A stretch of 46,435 bases of DNA from contig JAEOTP010000014.1 of NCBI GenBank assembly GCA_016839765.1, positions 1-46,435 of the forward strand. Direction: 5' to 3'. Below the pieces are notes generated by a model. The model worked only from the letters and a program-made list of their open reading frames with translations. It made no database searches and was not told where the DNA came from. The stretch comes from Promethearchaeota archaeon. GTDB taxonomy: Archaea > Asgardarchaeota > Lokiarchaeia > Sigyniarchaeales > SOKP01. How positions within the stretch are numbered: position 1 is the first letter of the stretch; every line of letters starts with the position of its first letter. Shown piece after piece: positions 51 through 11,430 of the stretch. Both the position numbers and the translations under genes were made by a program.

Positions 51-2357
51 TTAGAGGAACCATGGGATTTCACTAAGATCACCAGTTGGAAATATGTTAT
101 TCTTAACATATTGAGCAATTATTAGGGAATACTGAAGACTAATGGGAAAATTTGAAGGTATATAAGTAGTATGCCGCCAATTCATTCGCGATAATGCTAA
201 TATATCAAAACCAGCTTCATAGGGCTTACTATAAACCCCACTATCTCTCAAAATTTTTATTTTAAAGGAGTTAGGTATTGATTTTGGAGCAAAATTTTTA
301 TAATTATATCCTTGAAAATATCTTGAAATACCTTGAGGAAAAATTAAACCTGATTTGTCATCAAGATTTATCCAAGTCCCCCTAGGAACTGCTTTATTAT
401 TAAAATTCCATTTTAATGGAAATTCAGAAACCGAAACTAACGCTCCAGCAGCAAAATTAGAAGTATTAAAACAATCCATAAATGAATCAGCCTCTTCGGT
501 TGATACTGATCCTAACCTATGAATAATTACAGCACCCGGTTTTTCTTGATGCATATCATTTTTATCAATTAATTTAACTGCGTCAAAAAATAAATTTTTT
601 ACTTCATTATTTGGAATTTTCAATCCTTCATATCTTCTAGAATATCCATGACTCCTAAATACAAAATTGTATGCTTTTTCAATTTCATCAATTTCGAATG
701 TTTGTGTCTTAAATCCTAAATATTTTCCATTTCCCGTAAATACTGTGGCAATTCCTAAAATAAACTCATCTTTTTTATTCTCAGTAATTCCTCTAGCAAA
801 TCTATAACCTATTATCATATCTATAGGAACATCATCTTTTGTATAGCAGGCTTCAACTTGCCAAGGTATCCCTCCTAGCTTGGCAAAAATACTGGTAGCT
901 ACGCTCCAAAGAGGAAAAGTTTTCCATTTCCCAAAAAATTGATTGAAATTTTTAATTATTTGTGTTGGATAACCTAATTTTGTTAAATTTTCTTTAAAAT
1001 ATTGATATAATGGCGTAAATTTTCCCCATTCTCGAGGACTATCTTCAGTAAGACCAATAATAAAAAAAGGAACTACTGTCTCGTTCAATTTGAATTTCAA
1101 TGGTAGATTGGGGAATTCGGACCTAATTTCTTCTATGATTTTTATTACTTCCCTTTTAAAATTTTGGTAAGTCAAACTTGTATCAATTGGTGTTGCATTA
1201 GTTAAACTAATTTTTAAATCATATCTATTTAGAAGACCCGGAAAATCAAACTGACCTGTCCCAGATCCAAAAACTATTAAATTAGCTACCTTGAATATTT
1301 TTTCTTTAATATTTGGTTGATCTAAAGGGTATAGTGGAATAAATACAATTTTATACTTAGGGGAATACAATGGCCCAAATTGGTTTAATAAATACATAGT
1401 CGCACATTCTGATTTTTTCACATTCCTACCAACCCATAATGGTGATTCTTCAATTGTCCCATACTCAATCCTACTTGGGACAATAGGTAATATATAATCT
1501 ATCAATTCTTGTTCAAGTAAAGATTCGCTTTTTTCTTCTTCAATCTCAAAATCAGTTTCTTCTTCAAACTCTTCTATAAATGGGAAATCTTCGTTGTATT
1601 CATCAATATATTCATTATAATCTATATTTCTACTTAATTTAGATATATGTTTTGTTTTTAAATCTTCAATTTTATTGTTTATATTAAAAGAAAATGATGA
1701 CAAATTACAATTAACACCATCACCAATTATATCATTTAAAAATGAAGTTAATTCCATAAAATACCTATTAGTATCTAATTTAGATAAATTCTGAATATGA
1801 TAGGGGCTCCCTTTAATCGAACCTTTAATTCTTGTAATCCTTCTCACTATAAAAGAGGGATAATAGATTTCTCTGTTTTTTACTAGTGAAGGGATAAATT
1901 GTAATCCTAAATATACTTTATGAGATGGCATCTCTAAGATGGGATCCTTTTTTAAAAAATCTCTTTTAAATTTCAAACCAATATCTGAGGCAATAGTAAA
2001 ATCGCTTTCTGGATATGATTTTAATAAATTATACATAAAACTTGAAAATAAGGCATGAATAAACTGATTTTGGTTTTCTACAGGAAAACTCCAATTAAAT
2101 TTATCTTCCGAGAATTCAATTTGTTCGCTCCAACAATCTTCCAAGAATGGGGGTGAAGAATCAGAAACTTTTTTATCAATTGCAATAAGACCAAGCTTAT
2201 CTCTGAGAGTTAGAACATTCCACCCAAAACTTAGATATTTTTTTCTTAAAGTCCTTAATCTAACTTCTAAATTACTTCTTTCCATAAAAAATATCTTAAA
2301 TGAATTAGGTAGACTTGATTTTGACTTTAAAATGTTGAACACTATTATCAACTCCAT
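51..2357 (-). CDS. ago: Prokaryotic Argonaute, catalytically inactive PIWI, long-B-like, apparently PAZ-less
   Basis: MID pocket Y451-K455-Q466-K493 (LYQYFK...PTQII...IFAKLGGIPW). PIWI motifs MIIGYRF, VIIHRLG, VPRGTW, ALSRMNW, FPISLQYS, and C-terminal PWFL. EESPLWVG...FGPLY marks the L2/MID entry. Confidence 0.93.
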   Translation of the reverse strand: MELIIVFNILKSKSSLPNSFKIFFMERSNLEVRLRTLRKKYLSFGWNVLTLRDKLGLIAIDKKVSDSSPPFLEDCWSEQIEFSEDKFNWSFPVENQNQFIHALFSSFMYNLLKSYPESDFTIASDIGLKFKRDFLKKDPILEMPSHKVYLGLQFIPSLVKNREIYYPSFIVRRITRIKGSIKGSPYHIQNLSKLDTNRYFMELTSFLNDIIGDGVNCNLSSFSFNINNKIEDLKTKHISKLSRNIDYNEYIDEYNEDFPFIEEFEEETDFEIEEEKSESLLEQELIDYILPIVPSRIEYGTIEESPLWVGRNVKKSECATMYLLNQFGPLYSPKYKIVFIPLYPLDQPNIKEKIFKVANLIVFGSGTGQFDFPGLLNRYDLKISLTNATPIDTSLTYQNFKREVIKIIEEIRSEFPNLPLKFKLNETVVPFFIIGLTEDSPREWGKFTPLYQYFKENLTKLGYPTQIIKNFNQFFGKWKTFPLWSVATSIFAKLGGIPWQVEACYTKDDVPIDMIIGYRFARGITENKKDEFILGIATVFTGNGKYLGFKTQTFEIDEIEKAYNFVFRSHGYSRRYEGLKIPNNEVKNLFFDAVKLIDKNDMHQEKPGAVIIHRLGSVSTEEADSFMDCFNTSNFAAGALVSVSEFPLKWNFNNKAVPRGTWINLDDKSGLIFPQGISRYFQGYNYKNFAPKSIPNSFKIKILRDSGVYSKPYEAGFDILALSRMNWRHTTYIPSNFPISLQYSLIIAQYVKNNIFPTGDLSEIPWFL

Positions 2358-2434
2358 TTAATATTTAGTTTTATTAGATTCTCTTGTTTTTTTGGAATAA
2401 GATTATTCTTTAATTTTTTAATCAAAAATTAAAA

Positions 2435-2845
2435 TTAAATGATATGAATTATTTTTACTTTCGAAATTGTTTCTAAATCTTTTATATCACTTGATAATAA
2501 TTTATTTCTTGGATCATGAATACACATAATTAGAATGGTTTTTGCTAATTTTGAATATTTTATTGCTTGATAATAAAGCCTGTAAATATCATTAACACTT
2601 TTTATATTATATTTTAATTCAATAAGAATATTGTCTGAACCTATTGAAATATCAGGTCGGATTTGACGTCCTTCTTTATAACTTTTACTTTGTATATTTA
2701 ATTTAATATTTTTATCTAAAATTAAATCTAATTTATTAACTACAAAATTTTCAAAATCATCTTCAGTTCTAATTTTTTTTAATTTATAAATATCAATAGA
2801 CTTTAAAGTATTAGTGACTTTTTCTATAATTTCTCTCATATTCAT
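2435..2845 (-). CDS. Stand-alone PD-(D/E)xK restriction-endonuclease-fold nuclease
   Basis: E28 helix (TEDDFE), RPD65, IE76LK78Y and Q93xxxY97 motifs. Lies 7 bp downstream of the preceding gene and 77 bp upstream of ago. Confidence 0.8.
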   Translation of the reverse strand: MNMREIIEKVTNTLKSIDIYKLKKIRTEDDFENFVVNKLDLILDKNIKLNIQSKSYKEGRQIRPDISIGSDNILIELKYNIKSVNDIYRLYYQAIKYSKLAKTILIMCIHDPRNKLLSSDIKDLETISKVKIIHII

Positions 2846-2852
2846 TTAAATC

Positions 2853-4172
2853 TTAATTTTTAAAATCCCTTTCATTTTTATGGATAATTTGGGAAAACTG
2901 TTTATACATTTCAATATCCTCATTCGATAATTTACCTGCAGGATCGTATATATAGCAAATTAAATTTTTACTATACCTTGTTTTATATGTCATAACATTA
3001 AGGGATATTTTTTGTTTTTGAGCTCCTGGTGATTTATATTTACTAAAGTACCATACAGAGATAGCTAACGTTTCTTCATTTTGTGTGATTAAAATTAATT
3101 GTTCCTTTGGATCTCTTTCGATAGTGGTATTATTATATTTTGGATTCATAATTTTTAAATTTTGGATATTGCTAAAAATTTGGCCTGCTAATGTTTTGAT
3201 ATCTGAAATTGTTCTGTAATCTAATTTAATATCTTCAAGAAAAGTATTGATTTGTTTTTTCATGTTCAATTTTTCAGGAATTTTTTCTTCTTCATAGGGT
3301 TTTAATTCTAATATTTCTTCTTGTGTTAGGTTATCTGTCTTTTTTTTACTTGCTTTTAGATTAGGTTCTTCAAGTTCAATTGGTTTTGAGATTTCTTTTA
3401 ATTTAGAGGGAGGTAATTTATCTAAAATTCTTTCCACTAGCTCATCCTTGCTACCTGAAACCGGTAAAACAAAATCTCTACATATCTCTTTTAAATCATC
3501 TTTAGTCATAAGATAAGATATTATATCTTCTATAGGATCTTTTGTCTCATATAATAATCTCTGAATTAATTCGTTTTTTGTTCCTGATATCTTCATATCT
3601 TGAGAGAGTAGTTCAAATTGTAAACCTTCTATTGTTGCATACTTTTTAGAATATAATAACTGTTCAATTGTCTCAATTTCTTTCTTTTTTTGTTCATCTA
3701 TGATCTCCTCTTCGAATTCCTCTTCAATAAATTCCTCAATGAAATCTTCCTTTATCCTCTTTTCGATTATTAATTTAGCAGGTTCTATAAATTCCCTTGG
3801 TAAATAAATAATATCATCATCGGATTTTTCATCTTCAAAAATAATATATCTTGATAGTAGTTTTCTATAATTGTCTCTAAAAGTTGTACCACTTCTTTGT
3901 TGTAAAATTTCTTCTCTTAAAGCGTTATATCCAATTTCATTTTTGTTATTTATTATAGTTTTTAGAATAAGGGCTGTAGTGCCATTATCTGGAATAATAA
4001 ATTGGAAATTTTCTTTGAATTGTGGATTATTGAGATTATCATCAATCAATTTTATTATTTCTTCCTTTCTTAAATTGCTATAGCCTCTTAATCCAAATCT
4101 TTGACAAATATGTATTAAAGTTGGAACTTTCTTTTCAGGCAAAAAATCTATAATACTTTTCATTTTACTCAA
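2853..4172 (-). CDS. Multidomain nucleic-acid-binding protein: HeH/Rho-N-like, winged helix, two SAP domains, C-terminal degenerate PD-(D/E)xK-like domain
   Basis: LIHICQRFGLRGYSNLRKEEII (HeH). ISGTKNELIQRL and LKEICRDFVLPVSGSKDELVERIL (SAP consensus). The C-terminus aligns with the 136-aa nuclease. Start is TTG 4172 or ATG 4163. Confidence 0.75.
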   Translation of the reverse strand: MSKMKSIIDFLPEKKVPTLIHICQRFGLRGYSNLRKEEIIKLIDDNLNNPQFKENFQFIIPDNGTTALILKTIINNKNEIGYNALREEILQQRSGTTFRDNYRKLLSRYIIFEDEKSDDDIIYLPREFIEPAKLIIEKRIKEDFIEEFIEEEFEEEIIDEQKKKEIETIEQLLYSKKYATIEGLQFELLSQDMKISGTKNELIQRLLYETKDPIEDIISYLMTKDDLKEICRDFVLPVSGSKDELVERILDKLPPSKLKEISKPIELEEPNLKASKKKTDNLTQEEILELKPYEEEKIPEKLNMKKQINTFLEDIKLDYRTISDIKTLAGQIFSNIQNLKIMNPKYNNTTIERDPKEQLILITQNEETLAISVWYFSKYKSPGAQKQKISLNVMTYKTRYSKNLICYIYDPAGKLSNEDIEMYKQFSQIIHKNERDFKN

Positions 4173-4798: not shown

Positions 4799-6337
4799 TC
4801 ATATTACTACTTCTTCTCCTTCCTTTAATAATATTACATTACTAAAGTTCTCTTTAAACCATATTGGATTTTCAGTATGAACAGGAATAATATATTCGGG
4901 ATCTACTGTTTCGATAGCCCAGATTAAATCGCTTTTTGATGCGTGTCCTGATGCATGGAATCCTTTTATAAACTCTGGTGTTAATTTTCTATCTTTTTCT
5001 ACGATTTCAAAACCATGCACTTCGAATCCGAAATGTTTAAGCCAATTATTTAACCTAATAAAGTCAAACTCGGATTCTTCTTCGAAGGCTTCGCTCGAAG
5101 AGTATATGTATGTTCCATTTTGAGGTTTAATATCCAGTAAATGTTTAATTTCATAAAGTGAGAAACAGAGAATATAATTTTCAGGAGCTTTTGCTATATT
5201 GATAGGATCTATATAATTAACTTGATTTTTTAGGAAGTTTTCTTCCCAGTAATTCTTACCAGATTTATATTCTCCATAAACTAAAATCTCACTAGTTCTA
5301 TCAATCGCATCGATTTGTTCAAGAGCTTTTAGTAGGTATACTTGTTTAGCAGGTATGACTATTTCCCTATTACTGTTTTTTGCGATTTTTTCGAATAATT
5401 CAAGGCGTTCAAAGTTTCGAGCAGAATAATCAGTCACAACTATTCCTTTTGCATCTTGGATAATTTTTAGACAATCATTATATACTTCTTCCTCGGATTC
5501 TTCAATATTCTCTCTGGAAGTTCTAGTACCTTCGATTATTAGAACAGAAGCGTCTTTAGCAGCTTGAATAAAATTTTTACTTTTATTAGCTTTTTTTCCA
5601 TGTAATCGAAAATCTCCGGTGTAAGCTATTGAAGTATCTCCAGATAAAATATATCCAGTGGACCCGTAGATGGAGTGATCAACCTCATAGCAATTAATAT
5701 CAAATTGAGTAGGATTAACACTTAAATCGCAAAAATCTCCGCATTCCAGCGGCTTTAAAATTCCTGTTTGTCGTTCTGGAGCATTTTTAATATTTGTACT
5801 TAGAAATTGTTCTAAAGTATTTCCAATTTTTTCAGTACAAATTAAGTTTCTGGTTTTATATGCTCCCCTTATAGCTTTTAATGTTTTATCAGATAGACCT
5901 TGGGTTTTTTTGGAATAAAAAGCAGCCTCTAAATTTAAAGTCAGACTAGATGAGTCAGCCATTCCTTTCATAAATGCTAAACTTATTGGTGAACTAATGA
6001 GGGGAATATCCTCATTTAGTAAGCCTATGTTACCAAAATGATCCATATGGGGATGACTTACTAAAACAGCTTCAATATTTAACTTTGGATACATTGAAAT
6101 GTCCAAATCAGGAGGGATTAAATCTTTTCGATATATATTTAATTTTGGAATTAAATCTAAATGTATTAAATCATAGATACCTCTAGAAGATCTTTCTTTT
6201 AAAAATTCTTGGAAAAAGTAATGATATTTTTTAAAATTCATACCAAAATCAAGGAATACGCCTTTCCCATTTTCCTCAACAAAGATTTTATTGCCTCCAA
6301 TGGTATTAGCCCCATCATATACAGTTATAGATGTCAT
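4799..6337 (-). CDS. MBL-fold beta-CASP ribonuclease (RNase J-like)
   Basis: IGGN, LDFG, SHPHMDH, VDHS, YTGDFR, IEGT, HASGH and PVHTE motifs. Confidence 0.88.
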   Translation of the reverse strand: MTSITVYDGANTIGGNKIFVEENGKGVFLDFGMNFKKYHYFFQEFLKERSSRGIYDLIHLDLIPKLNIYRKDLIPPDLDISMYPKLNIEAVLVSHPHMDHFGNIGLLNEDIPLISSPISLAFMKGMADSSSLTLNLEAAFYSKKTQGLSDKTLKAIRGAYKTRNLICTEKIGNTLEQFLSTNIKNAPERQTGILKPLECGDFCDLSVNPTQFDINCYEVDHSIYGSTGYILSGDTSIAYTGDFRLHGKKANKSKNFIQAAKDASVLIIEGTRTSRENIEESEEEVYNDCLKIIQDAKGIVVTDYSARNFERLELFEKIAKNSNREIVIPAKQVYLLKALEQIDAIDRTSEILVYGEYKSGKNYWEENFLKNQVNYIDPINIAKAPENYILCFSLYEIKHLLDIKPQNGTYIYSSSEAFEEESEFDFIRLNNWLKHFGFEVHGFEIVEKDRKLTPEFIKGFHASGHASKSDLIWAIETVDPEYIIPVHTENPIWFKENFSNVILLKEGEEVVI

Positions 6338-6593
6338 TATTTTCCCTTAATGATATTAGGTCATTTTTCATAGGATTTTTATAGACACTTTTATAGAGAA
6401 ACTTATAAGATTTAAATCTTTTTTACGAAAATAGGAAACTAAAATTTTTAATTATTTGTTTAAGCAATTATTTCTTATATAAAAGAAGTTATAAATACGT
6501 ATTTGTATATTGTATGTAGACCGAAAAAAATCCAGATTAGAGAATTTTTAATTTTTATTTGTTTGTAGTAAGCCTTTAAGAGGAGGGAGGCAA

Positions 6594-8063
6594 TTGGACA
6601 AGCCAGTAAACATACGGTTATTAGGTGGCGTTAATGAAGTAGGGGGAAACATCGTCTTATTGGAGGATTTTAAATTTGACGTGAAATTATTTTTGGACTT
6701 TGGTGTAAATATCAAAAGATTTAAAGGGTTGTATGATGAGGGAGAGCATCCATCGACTATTGAAGAATTGATAACGTTACGGTTAATTCCGAGTGAACAG
6801 AGCCTTCCGATTAAGAATTTATACACGAAACAGGCTGGGCTTTATAGACAAGGATTAAGAAATAAAGAATTTCCTTCAAATTTAGATGCGATTTTGATTT
6901 CTCATCCTCATAAGGATCATTTTTTGGGAGTATCGTTTGTCAATCGTTCAATTCCGATTTATACGGGAGTGGTTACAAAAAAAATCATCAAGGCCTTTTA
7001 TAGATCGTCCGGGCGTTATTTAGAGAATAATTTTAAAGGTTTAAACTGGCATACATTTAGGACGGGAGATATTTTGGATTTTAAGGGAATGAAGATTGTG
7101 CCTTTTCATGTAGACCATTCAATTCCTGCCGCATATGGATTCATAATTTACCGCTCTGCGGGGTCTATAGTATATACAGGTGATTTCCGGATGCATGGTC
7201 CATTGTCTCACATGACGGAAGAATTCCTTGAAGAAATCAGTACTAACAAATTATGTTTAGCAGAAGGAAAATTAAACCAAGAACAAAAGGATATGGCTTC
7301 AAAAGGCGTAAAAGTTTTAATCTGTGAAGGAACAAAAATTAAGAAAGGAGTTGTAGAATCTGAAGAATCTGTGAAAACAAATCTTGAAAGACTCTTCCAA
7401 AGAAATCCTTTTGATTATATTTTGGTAAAATATGATCGAATTGACTGGGATCGGTTTAGAACCTTTTCTCACATAGCAAGAAAGTATGGATGGCGATATA
7501 TAATTACGGAAAGGGATGCATATTTTTACCATCTTCTAAATAAAGGAGCAAAGTATGAGACAATGATGGATCCGAACATTATTAACGACGAGCATATTTT
7601 TATCTTGAAAAAGGGTCCTGCGAGGTATCAATGGCAAGAAAAAATACGCCAAGCGATTTATAAACAACGCCAAGGAGAACGATTTCTTGATTATTCACAG
7701 ATAAAAGATTTAAAAAAGCATTATTTTATCTACATTACACATCTTTATGATGATTTAATGAATAACCTGAATCTCGATCTTAAAGGCTTATTTATTTCAT
7801 CCAGTGTAGATCCGTATGTTGAGGAATTTTATGATAACACCAAAACAATTTGTAATAGATTGTTGGATATTGGAATACCAGCATATAGGATTCATGCTTC
7901 AGGCCACGCAACTCCACACGATCTTATTAACTTTATAAAAGAAGTTAAACCACAATATTTAATCCCTATTCACACAGAGCATCCTGAATTTTTTGGCAAG
8001 ATGTTTGATAAAACTAATATAAATGTACTTCAAGCCGAATTAAATAAACCAATATCTATTTAG
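6594..8063 (+). CDS. MBL-fold beta-CASP ribonuclease (RNase J-like), second paralogue
   Basis: GGVNEVGGN, LDFG, SHPHKDH, VDHS, YTGDFR, CEGT, HASGH, PIHTE. GGAGGGAGG RBS before the TTG start. Confidence 0.88.
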   Translation: MDKPVNIRLLGGVNEVGGNIVLLEDFKFDVKLFLDFGVNIKRFKGLYDEGEHPSTIEELITLRLIPSEQSLPIKNLYTKQAGLYRQGLRNKEFPSNLDAILISHPHKDHFLGVSFVNRSIPIYTGVVTKKIIKAFYRSSGRYLENNFKGLNWHTFRTGDILDFKGMKIVPFHVDHSIPAAYGFIIYRSAGSIVYTGDFRMHGPLSHMTEEFLEEISTNKLCLAEGKLNQEQKDMASKGVKVLICEGTKIKKGVVESEESVKTNLERLFQRNPFDYILVKYDRIDWDRFRTFSHIARKYGWRYIITERDAYFYHLLNKGAKYETMMDPNIINDEHIFILKKGPARYQWQEKIRQAIYKQRQGERFLDYSQIKDLKKHYFIYITHLYDDLMNNLNLDLKGLFISSSVDPYVEEFYDNTKTICNRLLDIGIPAYRIHASGHATPHDLINFIKEVKPQYLIPIHTEHPEFFGKMFDKTNINVLQAELNKPISI

Positions 8064-8189: not shown

Positions 8190-8284
8190 TTATAAATTGG
8201 TCGTTTTTCTTAATAAAAGAAGTTATAAATGGGTGGTTGTTTAATGTATATTAAAGATATGAATCTTAGGGTTCATATATAATG

Positions 8285-8326
8285 AAGGTTATAAATAAAA
8301 TCTGATAAAGGTTATAAATAAAATCT
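8285..8326 (+). promoter_or_regulatory. Tandemly duplicated BRE/TATA-like element upstream of PAS gene
   Basis: AAGGTTATAAATAAAATCT occurs exactly at 8285-8303 and 8308-8326. The related AAAAGAAGTTATAAAT occurs near 6480 and 8215. Confidence 0.55.
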
Positions 8327-8368
8327 AATATAATTAAATAGATTAAGGCAAAAAATTGGAGTGATAAT

Positions 8369-8908
8369 ATGTCAAAAATGGAAGTAGAAGGGGAAATCAC
8401 TACAAAATGGAAAGATGAACAATTTCTATATTTTGCAGGAAATTCAAGTTTAGGAATTTTAATTATTCAAAGAGGGCACCTCATATATTTCAATAAAAAA
8501 TTTGCTGAAATATTTGGTTATAGTGAAGATGAAATCTCTAAATGGAAGAAAAGAGAATTTTATAAAATAGTCCATCCTGAAGATTTAAATGAATTAACTC
8601 AAAGATTTGTGCATGAAGATCAAAGAACTGTTTCTGTAAGGTTCAGGGGAATAAAAAAGAATGGCGAGATTATTTTAATTGAAAATTACAATAGTATAGT
8701 ATATTATAATGGCAAAATGGCGGTTTCCTCTACGTATTTAGAGTTAGAAAAACCATTTAAGAAAATGATGTATCAACCAACTACTGTTATCATGAAAGAA
8801 ACTCAAAAAATAGTTTTAGATTATCATCCGAGAACTGTAAAAATATTAGAAGATAATAATTTGAAATTTGAGATCATTGAGCATTTGTCGTATAAGGAAG
8901 AACATTAA
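8369..8908 (+). CDS. Stand-alone PAS domain S-box protein
   Basis: YFNKKFAEIFGYS...IVHPED...RGIKKNGE PAS signature. Confidence 0.88.
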   Translation: MSKMEVEGEITTKWKDEQFLYFAGNSSLGILIIQRGHLIYFNKKFAEIFGYSEDEISKWKKREFYKIVHPEDLNELTQRFVHEDQRTVSVRFRGIKKNGEIILIENYNSIVYYNGKMAVSSTYLELEKPFKKMMYQPTTVIMKETQKIVLDYHPRTVKILEDNNLKFEIIEHLSYKEEH

Positions 8909-9831: not shown

Positions 9832-10005
9832 ATGGAGAAGAAGAAATTCTTTACTTTAGAAGATCATAAACTAGCTTCAATGGGTCCAGATTATGTTGTC
9901 ATAATCCCCAGGAAATTAATAAAGTATAAAATAATTGATCCGCAAAAACGTTATAATATTCATTTTGAAGAAATCATGGAAGGGAATCAGAAAAAGAAGG
10001 GTTAA
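9832..10005 (+). CDS. Small AbrB/MazE-like swapped-hairpin DNA-binding protein (57 aa; not in ORF track)
   Basis: MEKKKFFTLEDHKLASMGPDYVVIIPRKLIKYKIIDPQKRYNIHFEEI...; KxxxMGxxxxIxIP pattern. Its stop overlaps the stop of the convergent PAS gene. Confidence 0.6.
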   Translation: MEKKKFFTLEDHKLASMGPDYVVIIPRKLIKYKIIDPQKRYNIHFEEIMEGNQKKKG

Positions 10006-10559
10006 TTTTCTTCTCGGTATGAACAATGTTTTATTATATCAAATTTTATATTATGATCTTTCAATATTTTAATGATTTTGGGATCATATTCCATTAAAAT
10101 TTTCTTTCCAGTTTTTATTGTGATAGTTTTAGGAGCATAAACCTCTTTTTCTTTTGGAGATATTTTAACGTAACTAGATAAAATTGCTGTTTTGTTATTA
10201 TATTCAATTCTACAGTTGTAATTTTCAATATTAATGATTTCTTTGTTTTTGGTTACTCCTCTAAATTGAACTGTCACTGTTTTTTTATCATTTTCAATCT
10301 TGAAATTTTTCACTAAATTTGGTAAATCATCAGGGTGAACAATCTTATAAAATTCCCTTTTTTTCCAATTTAAGATATCTTCTTTTGTATACCCAAATAT
10401 TTCGGTGAATTTTTGATTGAAATATTTTAGATAGCCTCTTTGAATTATTAAGACGCCCATTGCAGAATTATTAGCAAAATGAAGGAATTGATCATTATGT
10501 AATTTCGTAGCATATTCCTTAACTTCTTCAACTTTATCTTTGCCAATCATTTTTCGCAA
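10002..10559 (-). CDS. Stand-alone PAS domain S-box protein, paralogue of 8369-8908
   Basis: YFNQKFTEIFGY...WKKREFYKIVHPDD shared with the first PAS protein. Start may be ATG 10550. Confidence 0.88.
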   Translation of the reverse strand: MRKMIGKDKVEEVKEYATKLHNDQFLHFANNSAMGVLIIQRGYLKYFNQKFTEIFGYTKEDILNWKKREFYKIVHPDDLPNLVKNFKIENDKKTVTVQFRGVTKNKEIINIENYNCRIEYNNKTAILSSYVKISPKEKEVYAPKTITIKTGKKILMEYDPKIIKILKDHNIKFDIIKHCSYREEN

Positions 10560-10884: not shown

Positions 10885-11430
10885 GTGGTAGAAATTAGCA
10901 GAGATTTAACCTTCAAAATTTGTCTTTTTGGAGAAAAAAATGTTGGAAAAAGCTCACTAATTCAGGCAGTGACTCAAAAAGGCTTCAGTAAGGAGACAAG
11001 ACCACCAGCAATCATAGATATTGAAACTAAACATTTAACTATAAATTCATTTAAAACTGTACTTCAGATATGGATTCTTAGATTTGACTTTCAGTTTGAT
11101 TTTCTTTTCCCCATTTTTCTAAGGGGGACCTCAGGAGGTATTTTTATGTTTGATATCACCAAATTTCCCAGTATAAGCAATGTAGAAAGGTGGATAACAA
11201 CGTTTAAGAAAAGTTTATCTAATGATGAAAAGAAAATTCCACTAGTAATGGTAGGGGGAAAATGTGATCTCTATTTTAAAAGAACAGTCCCTAAGAAAAT
11301 CGCAAAAGAAATATCACAAAAATATGAATTCTTTAGATATTTCGAATGTTCTTCCAAAACTGGAGAAAATTTAGATAAGGTGTTTAAATTTTTAACGAGA
11401 GCTATAATGAAATTTAACGGTTATGTTTAA
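10885..11430 (+). CDS. Rab-like small GTPase with degenerate G2/G3
   Basis: GEKNVGKS P-loop, GGKCD, ECSSKTGEN. G3 reads WILRFD instead of WDxxG. Confidence 0.85.
   Translation: MVEISRDLTFKICLFGEKNVGKSSLIQAVTQKGFSKETRPPAIIDIETKHLTINSFKTVLQIWILRFDFQFDFLFPIFLRGTSGGIFMFDITKFPSISNVERWITTFKKSLSNDEKKIPLVMVGGKCDLYFKRTVPKKIAKEISQKYEFFRYFECSSKTGENLDKVFKFLTRAIMKFNGYV

Follow-up and report, generated by a model that had tools for sequence, protein, structure and literature searches.

A small PD-(D/E)xK nuclease encoded beside a SAP-domain pseudonuclease in a Promethearchaeota genome: a candidate two-subunit system

The window analysed here (a stretch of 46,435 nucleotides, contig C60 of a Promethearchaeota genome that is 96% complete) begins with three co-oriented, leftwards-transcribed genes encoding proteins of 439, 136 and 768 residues, separated by gaps of 7 and 77 bp (Table 1). 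In a first-pass annotation the C-terminal part of the 439-aa protein was seen to resemble the entire 136-aa protein, with an active site that appears intact in the small protein and replaced in the fused copy. The locus raises the question of whether the two domains are true paralogues and, if so, why a nuclease domain without its active site is kept next to one that has it.

Locus organization and relatedness of the two nuclease domains

The 439-aa protein has an N-terminal arm followed by a linker and a C-terminal nuclease-fold domain. The earlier two-gene reading of the locus is confirmed in what it observed of the pair and partly supported in its interpretation, but it overlooked the Rho-N/HeH and two-SAP arm as well as a JAB peptidase gene that is usually the third member at related loci. 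Pfam lists SAP and Rho_N for the 439-aa protein and no HhH family; the 136-aa protein matches no family in Pfam, PADLOC or NCBIfam, and none of the three provides a nuclease family for either protein. An atlas search with the N-terminal 140 residues of the 439-aa protein was empty at 0.9. No paralogue of the 439-aa gene or the 136-aa gene, and no JAB gene or Mrr-type Argonaute partner (see below), was found elsewhere in the source genome. Within the window no convincing repeats bracket the cassette, and a promoter and terminator scan, built for bacteria, gave chance-level results.

Table 1. Features of the locus, with positions in the window
Feature	Position	Strand	Remarks
Small free PD-(D/E)xK nuclease, 136 aa (134 from the second Met)	2435..2845	-	Intact E28, P64-D65, E76-x-K78, Q93, Y97; without DNA-binding domain
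439-aa SAP-domain protein: DNA-binding arm, linker, C-terminal pseudonuclease	2853..4172	-	TTG start; first ATG gives 436 aa
Pseudonuclease domain, residues 300-439	2856..3275	-	PD-(D/E)xK fold; I325, Q358-L359, S372, W374, N392 at catalytic positions
Lys/Glu/Pro-rich linker, residues ~251-299	3276..3422	-	Length and sequence vary; alignment columns poorly conserved
Second SAP motif, residues 222-250	3423..3509	-	Pfam PF02037, two stretches, E 1.4e-14 for the whole protein
First SAP motif, residues ~176-210	3543..3647	-	Pfam PF02037; weak Tho1 SAP match, E 0.026
Conserved domain, residues ~60-135, probably winged helix	3768..3995	-	Sequence pattern only; no named atlas family at 0.9
Rho-N/HeH-type motif, residues 13-40	4053..4136	-	Pfam PF07498, E 1.5e-4, slightly below the curated cut-off
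Cassette 3' boundary	2409..2434	-	Similarity to the two closest relatives stops ~25 bp past the stop codon
768-aa prokaryotic Argonaute, PIWI catalytic Asp replaced (R519, L615)	51..2357	-	Co-oriented neighbour, not a conserved part of the system

By themselves the two sequences are marginal evidence of homology: BLASTP aligns the 136-aa protein with the fused domain over 30 residues only (E 0.009), and 28 of 147 columns are identical in a global alignment of the pair (shuffle p = 0.024), while local alignment has a shuffle p of 0.30. Homology is established because the family profiles align. A profile of 19 sequences for the small protein matches one of 18 sequences for the C-terminal domain at 95% (E 3.3e-8, 122 columns), and the comparison with single-gene relatives that have an intact site gives 96.5% (E 7e-10). 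A reversed profile gives 0.2%, the best of 100 column shuffles scores 20 vs 50 for the real comparison, and a signal is left after removal of the shared C-terminal motif (E 6e-4 and 8e-6). The register of the profile alignment agrees at both ends with the original alignment of residues ~304-433 with the whole small protein.

The predicted folds, a difference in which would have counted against the first-pass proposal, are of the same type, with AlphaFold2 models of the small protein (pLDDT 91) and the fused domain (pLDDT 92) displaying a PD-(D/E)xK fold with helices and strands in the same order. Their best structural matches come from the same PD-(D/E)xK set (BspD6I small subunit, CdiA-CT, Card1/Can2, BamHI and CinB; Z 7-8.5). 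Nearly all top matches of the small-protein model are PD-(D/E)xK nucleases, the BspD6I small subunit being tied best (Z 8.5, rmsd 3.0, 110 aligned); the same subunit matches the dead-domain model at Z 7.0, tied with others. These middling and tied Z values fix the fold and not the family. The dead-domain model also superposes on the PF18742 (DpnII-MboI-type) cluster with a TM of 0.73 and an rmsd of 2.3 over 122 residues, the first match of the 136-aa protein in the atlas search (0.94) is PD-(D/E)xK, and neither model has a Foldseek match at E <= 0.001. We conclude that the two domains are almost certainly homologous.

Active and inactive sites among the relatives

The catalytic residues of the small protein lie at the positions first noted, and the replacements reported for the PD and ExK positions of the fused copy are confirmed (P64-D65 to Q358-L359, E76 to S372, K78 to W374); the window copy has two further changes, E28 to I325 and Q93 to N392, and retains the counterparts of Y79, Y97 and D111-P112. 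None of the 29 aligned free homologues departs from E28, D65, E76, K78 or Q93, and the intact residues predict a metal-dependent nuclease activity for the 136-aa protein. Among the 18 dead-family fused copies aligned, ExK is missing from every one, the PD aspartate is retained by that of locus L029 alone, and the K78 position is a bulky Trp in 15. The fused copy is very probably catalytically dead.

The dead domain has a dN/dS of 0.09 against the closest relative, 0.05-0.30 in nine pairs and 0.5 in one near-identical pair, similar to the values for the nuclease and the N-terminal arm. With dN/dS well below 1 the domain is not decaying, and it is kept full-length and confidently folded across sequences only 21-30% identical; judged from these substitution patterns, it is maintained by purifying selection. 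A basic/aromatic C-terminal tail is conserved solely in the fused duplicates. Restriction-fold enzymes often dimerize through the helix following ExK; in the free copies this helix hardly varies and is aromatic where the single forms have Gly.

The relatives display several states of what appears to be one system. In the single-gene form the same N-terminal arm is joined to an intact nuclease (P0046 from Borrarchaeum, P0040 from Heimdallarchaeota, P0047, P0055 and G006), and the same JAB gene adjoins two of these; Geoglobus has shorter SAP-nuclease fusions, and stand-alone small intact relatives are present in other archaea (P0044, P0049). At locus L073 the domain is duplicated and the fused copy, like the free one, retains E, PD, ExK and Q; this fused copy already has the dead-family C-terminal tail and is scored by the dead-family HMM at E 3e-21. 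In L029 the fused copy has kept PD and lost ExK. The upstream protein of L072, which has an E of 4e-4 and a very long branch, is doubtful as a dead copy.

In the domain tree the dead copies and the L073 copy fall on one side (100/97), with the free copies (92/88) and the single forms (95/86) forming their own groups. The root was placed by assumption on the single forms, chosen as the taxonomically wider group, and L073 is a long branch; rooted in this way, the tree implies one duplication and then loss of catalysis. The duplication suggested in the first-pass annotation, with later catalytic loss in the fused copy, is well supported by the intact single-gene relatives, the one duplicated locus with both sites intact and the tree. 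Living genomes hold a single intact form, a duplicated form with both sites intact, a form with PD kept and ExK lost, and a fully dead form.

A conserved operon in variable surroundings

With near-identical contigs collapsed, upstream DNA is readable at 22 loci, and at 21 of these the small nuclease is immediately preceded by a SAP gene (gaps from -29 to +18 bp); L018 departs from this and has a truncated nuclease and a frameshifted JAB. This truncated gene is the sole orphan, and no intact small nuclease without an upstream SAP gene was found at the readable loci, nor any orphan dead gene among the loci and 400 genomes examined. The SAP protein and the small nuclease form a conserved, patchily spread operon. 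For both genes the named homologues belong to Promethearchaeota (Loki) assemblies, of which one is labelled Thorarchaeota, and the split pair is rare: it is present in 2 of 400 genomes of the phylum, with the dead domain and the free nuclease in the same two, and in none of 41 genomes of the same genus.

A JAB peptidase gene, broken in two cases, follows the pair at 15 of the 21 readable loci. It codes for a JAB/MPN+ protein of 164 aa with E35, H101, H103 and D114 intact, and is missing from two subclades, including the source genome, where it is dispensable. The JAB may be a peptidase switch or, by analogy with RadC-type JABs, may act on nucleic acids (PMC3239186). An orthologous JAB is divergently transcribed from a single SAP-nuclease gene in a Heimdallarchaeota contig (L067:822-1277, minus strand), so the JAB link survives rearrangement.

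The neighbours are variable and some are of defence type, including AriA/OLD-like ATPase, PDC-S71 and Argonaute genes; weak PADLOC JAB matches are also present at related loci. The ATPase neighbour (L004:1963-4365) is an 800-aa, fused PARIS-like protein, and L010:7803-10466 is a PADLOC PDC-S71 match. No cyclase, E1, E2 or ubiquitin-like gene is seen among the called genes and Pfam matches beside the operon, where many contigs are short and annotation of the neighbours is partial, and methyltransferase motifs, scanned for in the window and 13 loci, were not seen in the operon, the one in L036 lying some kb away. In the same L036 locus (genome G307), imperfect direct repeats of ~67 bp (8274-8340 and 10200-10267) lie around a cassette of a single-gene SAP-nuclease and a JAB, which suggests cassette mobility; such repeats are not seen around the window copy. 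The tandem SAP module is also reused in other Asgard proteins, joined to a further PD-(D/E)xK-like domain (L049, L051) or to an unrelated domain (L047, L050).

Proposed roles and comparison with known systems

Pairwise distances of the dead and the free domain are strongly correlated across the 8-11 related loci used (r 0.90-0.92, also inside the main clade), and correlations are weaker between the free domain and the JAB (0.61) and between the dead domain and its own N-terminus (0.63); a column bootstrap gives 0.98-0.998. This co-variation is suggestive, and physical linkage or a cassette swap of the dead and free block would also account for it and for the co-inheritance of the pair. Divergence is roughly twofold greater in the dead domain (mean distance 1.4) than in the free one (0.65), and the net charges of the two are not consistently complementary. 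Complex prediction for the dead domain and the small nuclease scored 0.00, a result without weight for or against contact since the controls were not folded and 22 of 80 solved complexes escape the method. On balance, a physical complex of the 439-aa and 136-aa proteins seems fairly likely.

Our preferred reading, a tentative one that falls a little short of being probable, is a cooperating heterodimer of a targeting subunit and a cutter with one active site, probably used in defence. The ancestor-like form is one protein, with the arm (Rho-N/HeH, probable winged helix and two SAP motifs) joined to an intact PD-(D/E)xK domain, often near a JAB gene; the ancestor would have acted as a homodimer of nuclease domains, an oligomeric state that we assume, and many restriction-fold enzymes work as homodimers. 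In one Promethearchaeota lineage the nuclease domain was duplicated as a free gene directly downstream, after which the fused copy lost its catalytic residues, with fold and purifying selection retained and the pair co-inherited. The 439-aa protein would grip duplex DNA without sequence specificity and the small nuclease would dock on its dead domain, so that the dimer, with its one active site, would nick DNA of a particular structure or cut one strand of it, and alone the small subunit would be largely idle. The near-invariant aromatic helix after ExK in the free copies fits the need of a new interface. Less firmly, we read the function as defence against mobile DNA, in which the JAB peptidase, lost here, would be an optional regulator; that the role is probably defensive is argued from the absence from same-genus genomes and from the neighbours, PADLOC having no model for either protein. 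A bolder version is possible and more speculative still: the Asgard pair would be a nuclease of an undescribed kind, for defence or for the processing of DNA structures, whose pseudonuclease guides and licenses the free catalytic subunit, subject to control by the JAB. Archaea would then have repeated the XPF-to-ERCC1 split independently, with all states extant, and the heterodimer would be a natural one-site nicking enzyme.

The first-pass annotation had left room both for a recruiting partner and for one that holds the nuclease inactive. In the latter case the small nuclease would be a toxic homo-oligomer and the dead paralogue a dominant-negative brake, released by a trigger such as SAP-bound foreign DNA or JAB cleavage, after which the nuclease would degrade DNA. 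The partner gene comes first in order, K78 is replaced by Trp in most dead copies, the spread is patchy and island-like, an intact JAMM peptidase usually lies next, and no intact small nuclease lacking its upstream SAP gene was seen at the readable loci, as such a brake would have it; however, the single-gene forms combine an intact site and a DNA-binding arm without an inhibitor gene, both sites are intact in L073, the JAB is absent from a nearly complete source genome, and no orphan dead gene was seen, whereas orphan antitoxins are usually tolerated. We regard a brake as unlikely and favour the recruiting, one-site reading over it. No likelier is a shared pathway without contact between the nuclease-fold domains, with the dead domain repurposed (for nucleic acid, the JAB or a viral protein) and the small nuclease forming its own homo-oligomer. 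The central domain of ERCC1 is a precedent, this dead nuclease domain being retained for other partners, XPA and ssDNA (PMC2034474), and the fast divergence of the dead domain, the tail confined to fused duplicates and the stand-alone intact relatives of other archaea all fit; against it, the co-variation of dead and free domains exceeds that with the JAB or the N-terminal arm, and the dead domain is under purifying selection even in the JAB-less subclade (dN/dS 0.09).

A tempting alternative at this locus is a three-part system in which the 768-aa protein (PADLOC pAgo, E 5e-44), predicted to be inactive from the R519 and L615 at its catalytic Asp positions, senses invader DNA and activates the small nuclease via the SAP protein. 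The close spacing of the three co-oriented genes and the missing JAB are in keeping with this, and pAgos without the catalytic Asp use PD-(D/E)xK effectors (PMC10620215, PMC13535254), but a pAgo follows the pair in just 1 of 21 readable loci, and the two nearest relatives, which share 82-87% DNA identity with the window, continue into unrelated genes from the same point, so that three different genes follow the cassette boundary in these genomes. Moreover, two close pAgo orthologues (55-57%; G145 and G161) are in genomes without the pair, and each has downstream a gene for a protein of 414-418 aa that ends in an Mrr-type nuclease domain. A three-part system is thus very improbable, the three-gene Argonaute reading of the locus is corrected and a conserved Argonaute partnership is rejected; the Argonaute may have been recruited to the pair recently. 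Least probable of all is that the C-terminal domain has no role, as a decaying leftover of the duplication or a chance look-alike. The weak pairwise similarity would agree with this, but chance similarity to the small nuclease is ruled out by the profile, fold and control tests, and a decaying remnant by the dN/dS values, far below 1, and by a full-length, confidently folded domain.

The source contig ends 50 bp past the Argonaute stop codon, so that a Mrr-type partner may lie off the contig; an ATG that overlaps the end of the Argonaute gene starts a frame still open at the contig edge. At the same point after the closest relative of the cassette there is a different gene, of 306+ aa and with no family found (L031:2198-3115). 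A split, more distant Argonaute is present at L041 and L042 (genomes G214 and G185), where co-oriented genes code for proteins of ~240 aa, 478 aa (MID-PIWI) and 440 aa in an AfAgo/SiAgo-like layout. In the BPAN system (long-B pAgo and bAgaN; PMC10620215, PMC13535254) an inactive pAgo likewise lies beside a PD-(D/E)xK nuclease, an arrangement seen here in the source genome only; unlike BPAN, the link here is not conserved, and bAgaN is a single protein with an N-terminal regulatory domain.

The closest parallels in organization are the class III type IIS/IIT enzymes (BspD6I/BstNBI, BsrDI and BtsI), in which the large subunit joins a DNA-binding part to a PD-(D/E)xK domain and the small subunit comes from an adjacent ORF. 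The BspD6I small subunit resembles the catalytic domain of its own large subunit, and a small protein duplicating the nuclease domain of the large one is likewise encoded next to it here. The small downstream subunit of these enzymes works only with the large one, and engineered pairs of a dead large and a live small subunit nick one strand (PMC3017599), an experimental precedent for the preferred reading. Both subunits are naturally active in these enzymes, however, and the large one reads sequence, whereas here the large subunit is naturally dead and has a HeH/SAP arm, no methyltransferase motif was seen in the operon at the loci scanned and a JAB is usually attached; an active site in the large subunit is absent from the window protein and present only in the L073 relative. 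Classical restriction-modification is rejected.

XPF-ERCC1 and MUS81-EME1 (PMC2034474) also pair an active with an inactive restriction-fold paralogue, both derived by duplication from one gene, and share out DNA binding and catalysis between the two subunits, but have an ERKxxxD motif and HhH2 where the present proteins have PD...ExK and QxxxY with SAP/HeH. Here the nuclease domain alone is duplicated, and the system is rare and mobile rather than part of core repair. XPF-ERCC1 is an evolutionary precedent for the proposed heterodimer and an analogue of the pair with a separate origin, not its ancestor, and XPF-family membership is rejected (E76-L-K78 lacks the Arg and has no downstream Asp at the ERKxxxD spacing). 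The REase_DpnII-MboI (PF18742)/DUF8371 group gives weak Pfam matches with the single-gene relatives (best E 2.9e-5, below the cut-off), but the window proteins reach no nuclease Pfam model, and architecture and gene context differ. Type II CBASS Cap3 and Bil operons share an intact JAMM peptidase encoded with a probable defence effector, and differ in that no cyclase, ubiquitin-like or ubiquitin-conjugation genes are seen among the annotated neighbours here and the JAB is lost in the source genome.

We found no description of a SAP-pseudonuclease/nuclease(/JAB) operon in the literature covered, which mostly excludes subscription journals, and it is not listed in the sections covered of a 2026 Asgard defence survey (PMC13700489). 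It adds a candidate Asgard defence operon, of a SAP-pseudonuclease, a nuclease and a JAB, whose nuclease has no PADLOC model, and the pair may be a natural compact nickase. The origin of pseudoenzyme subunits is usually inferred from end points, such as the archaeal XPF homodimer vs XPF-ERCC1; here four states of one small system are directly comparable, in the archaea closest to eukaryotes.

The rest of the window includes two divergent RNase J-like beta-CASP genes (4799-6337, minus strand; 6594-8063, plus strand), the second of which lies between copies of a 45-bp imperfect direct repeat (6471-6515 and 8206-8249, 84%). Further along are two similar stand-alone PAS proteins in opposite orientation (8369-8908, plus; 10002-10559, minus) and a Ras/Rab-like small GTPase (10885-11430, plus), typical Asgard content.
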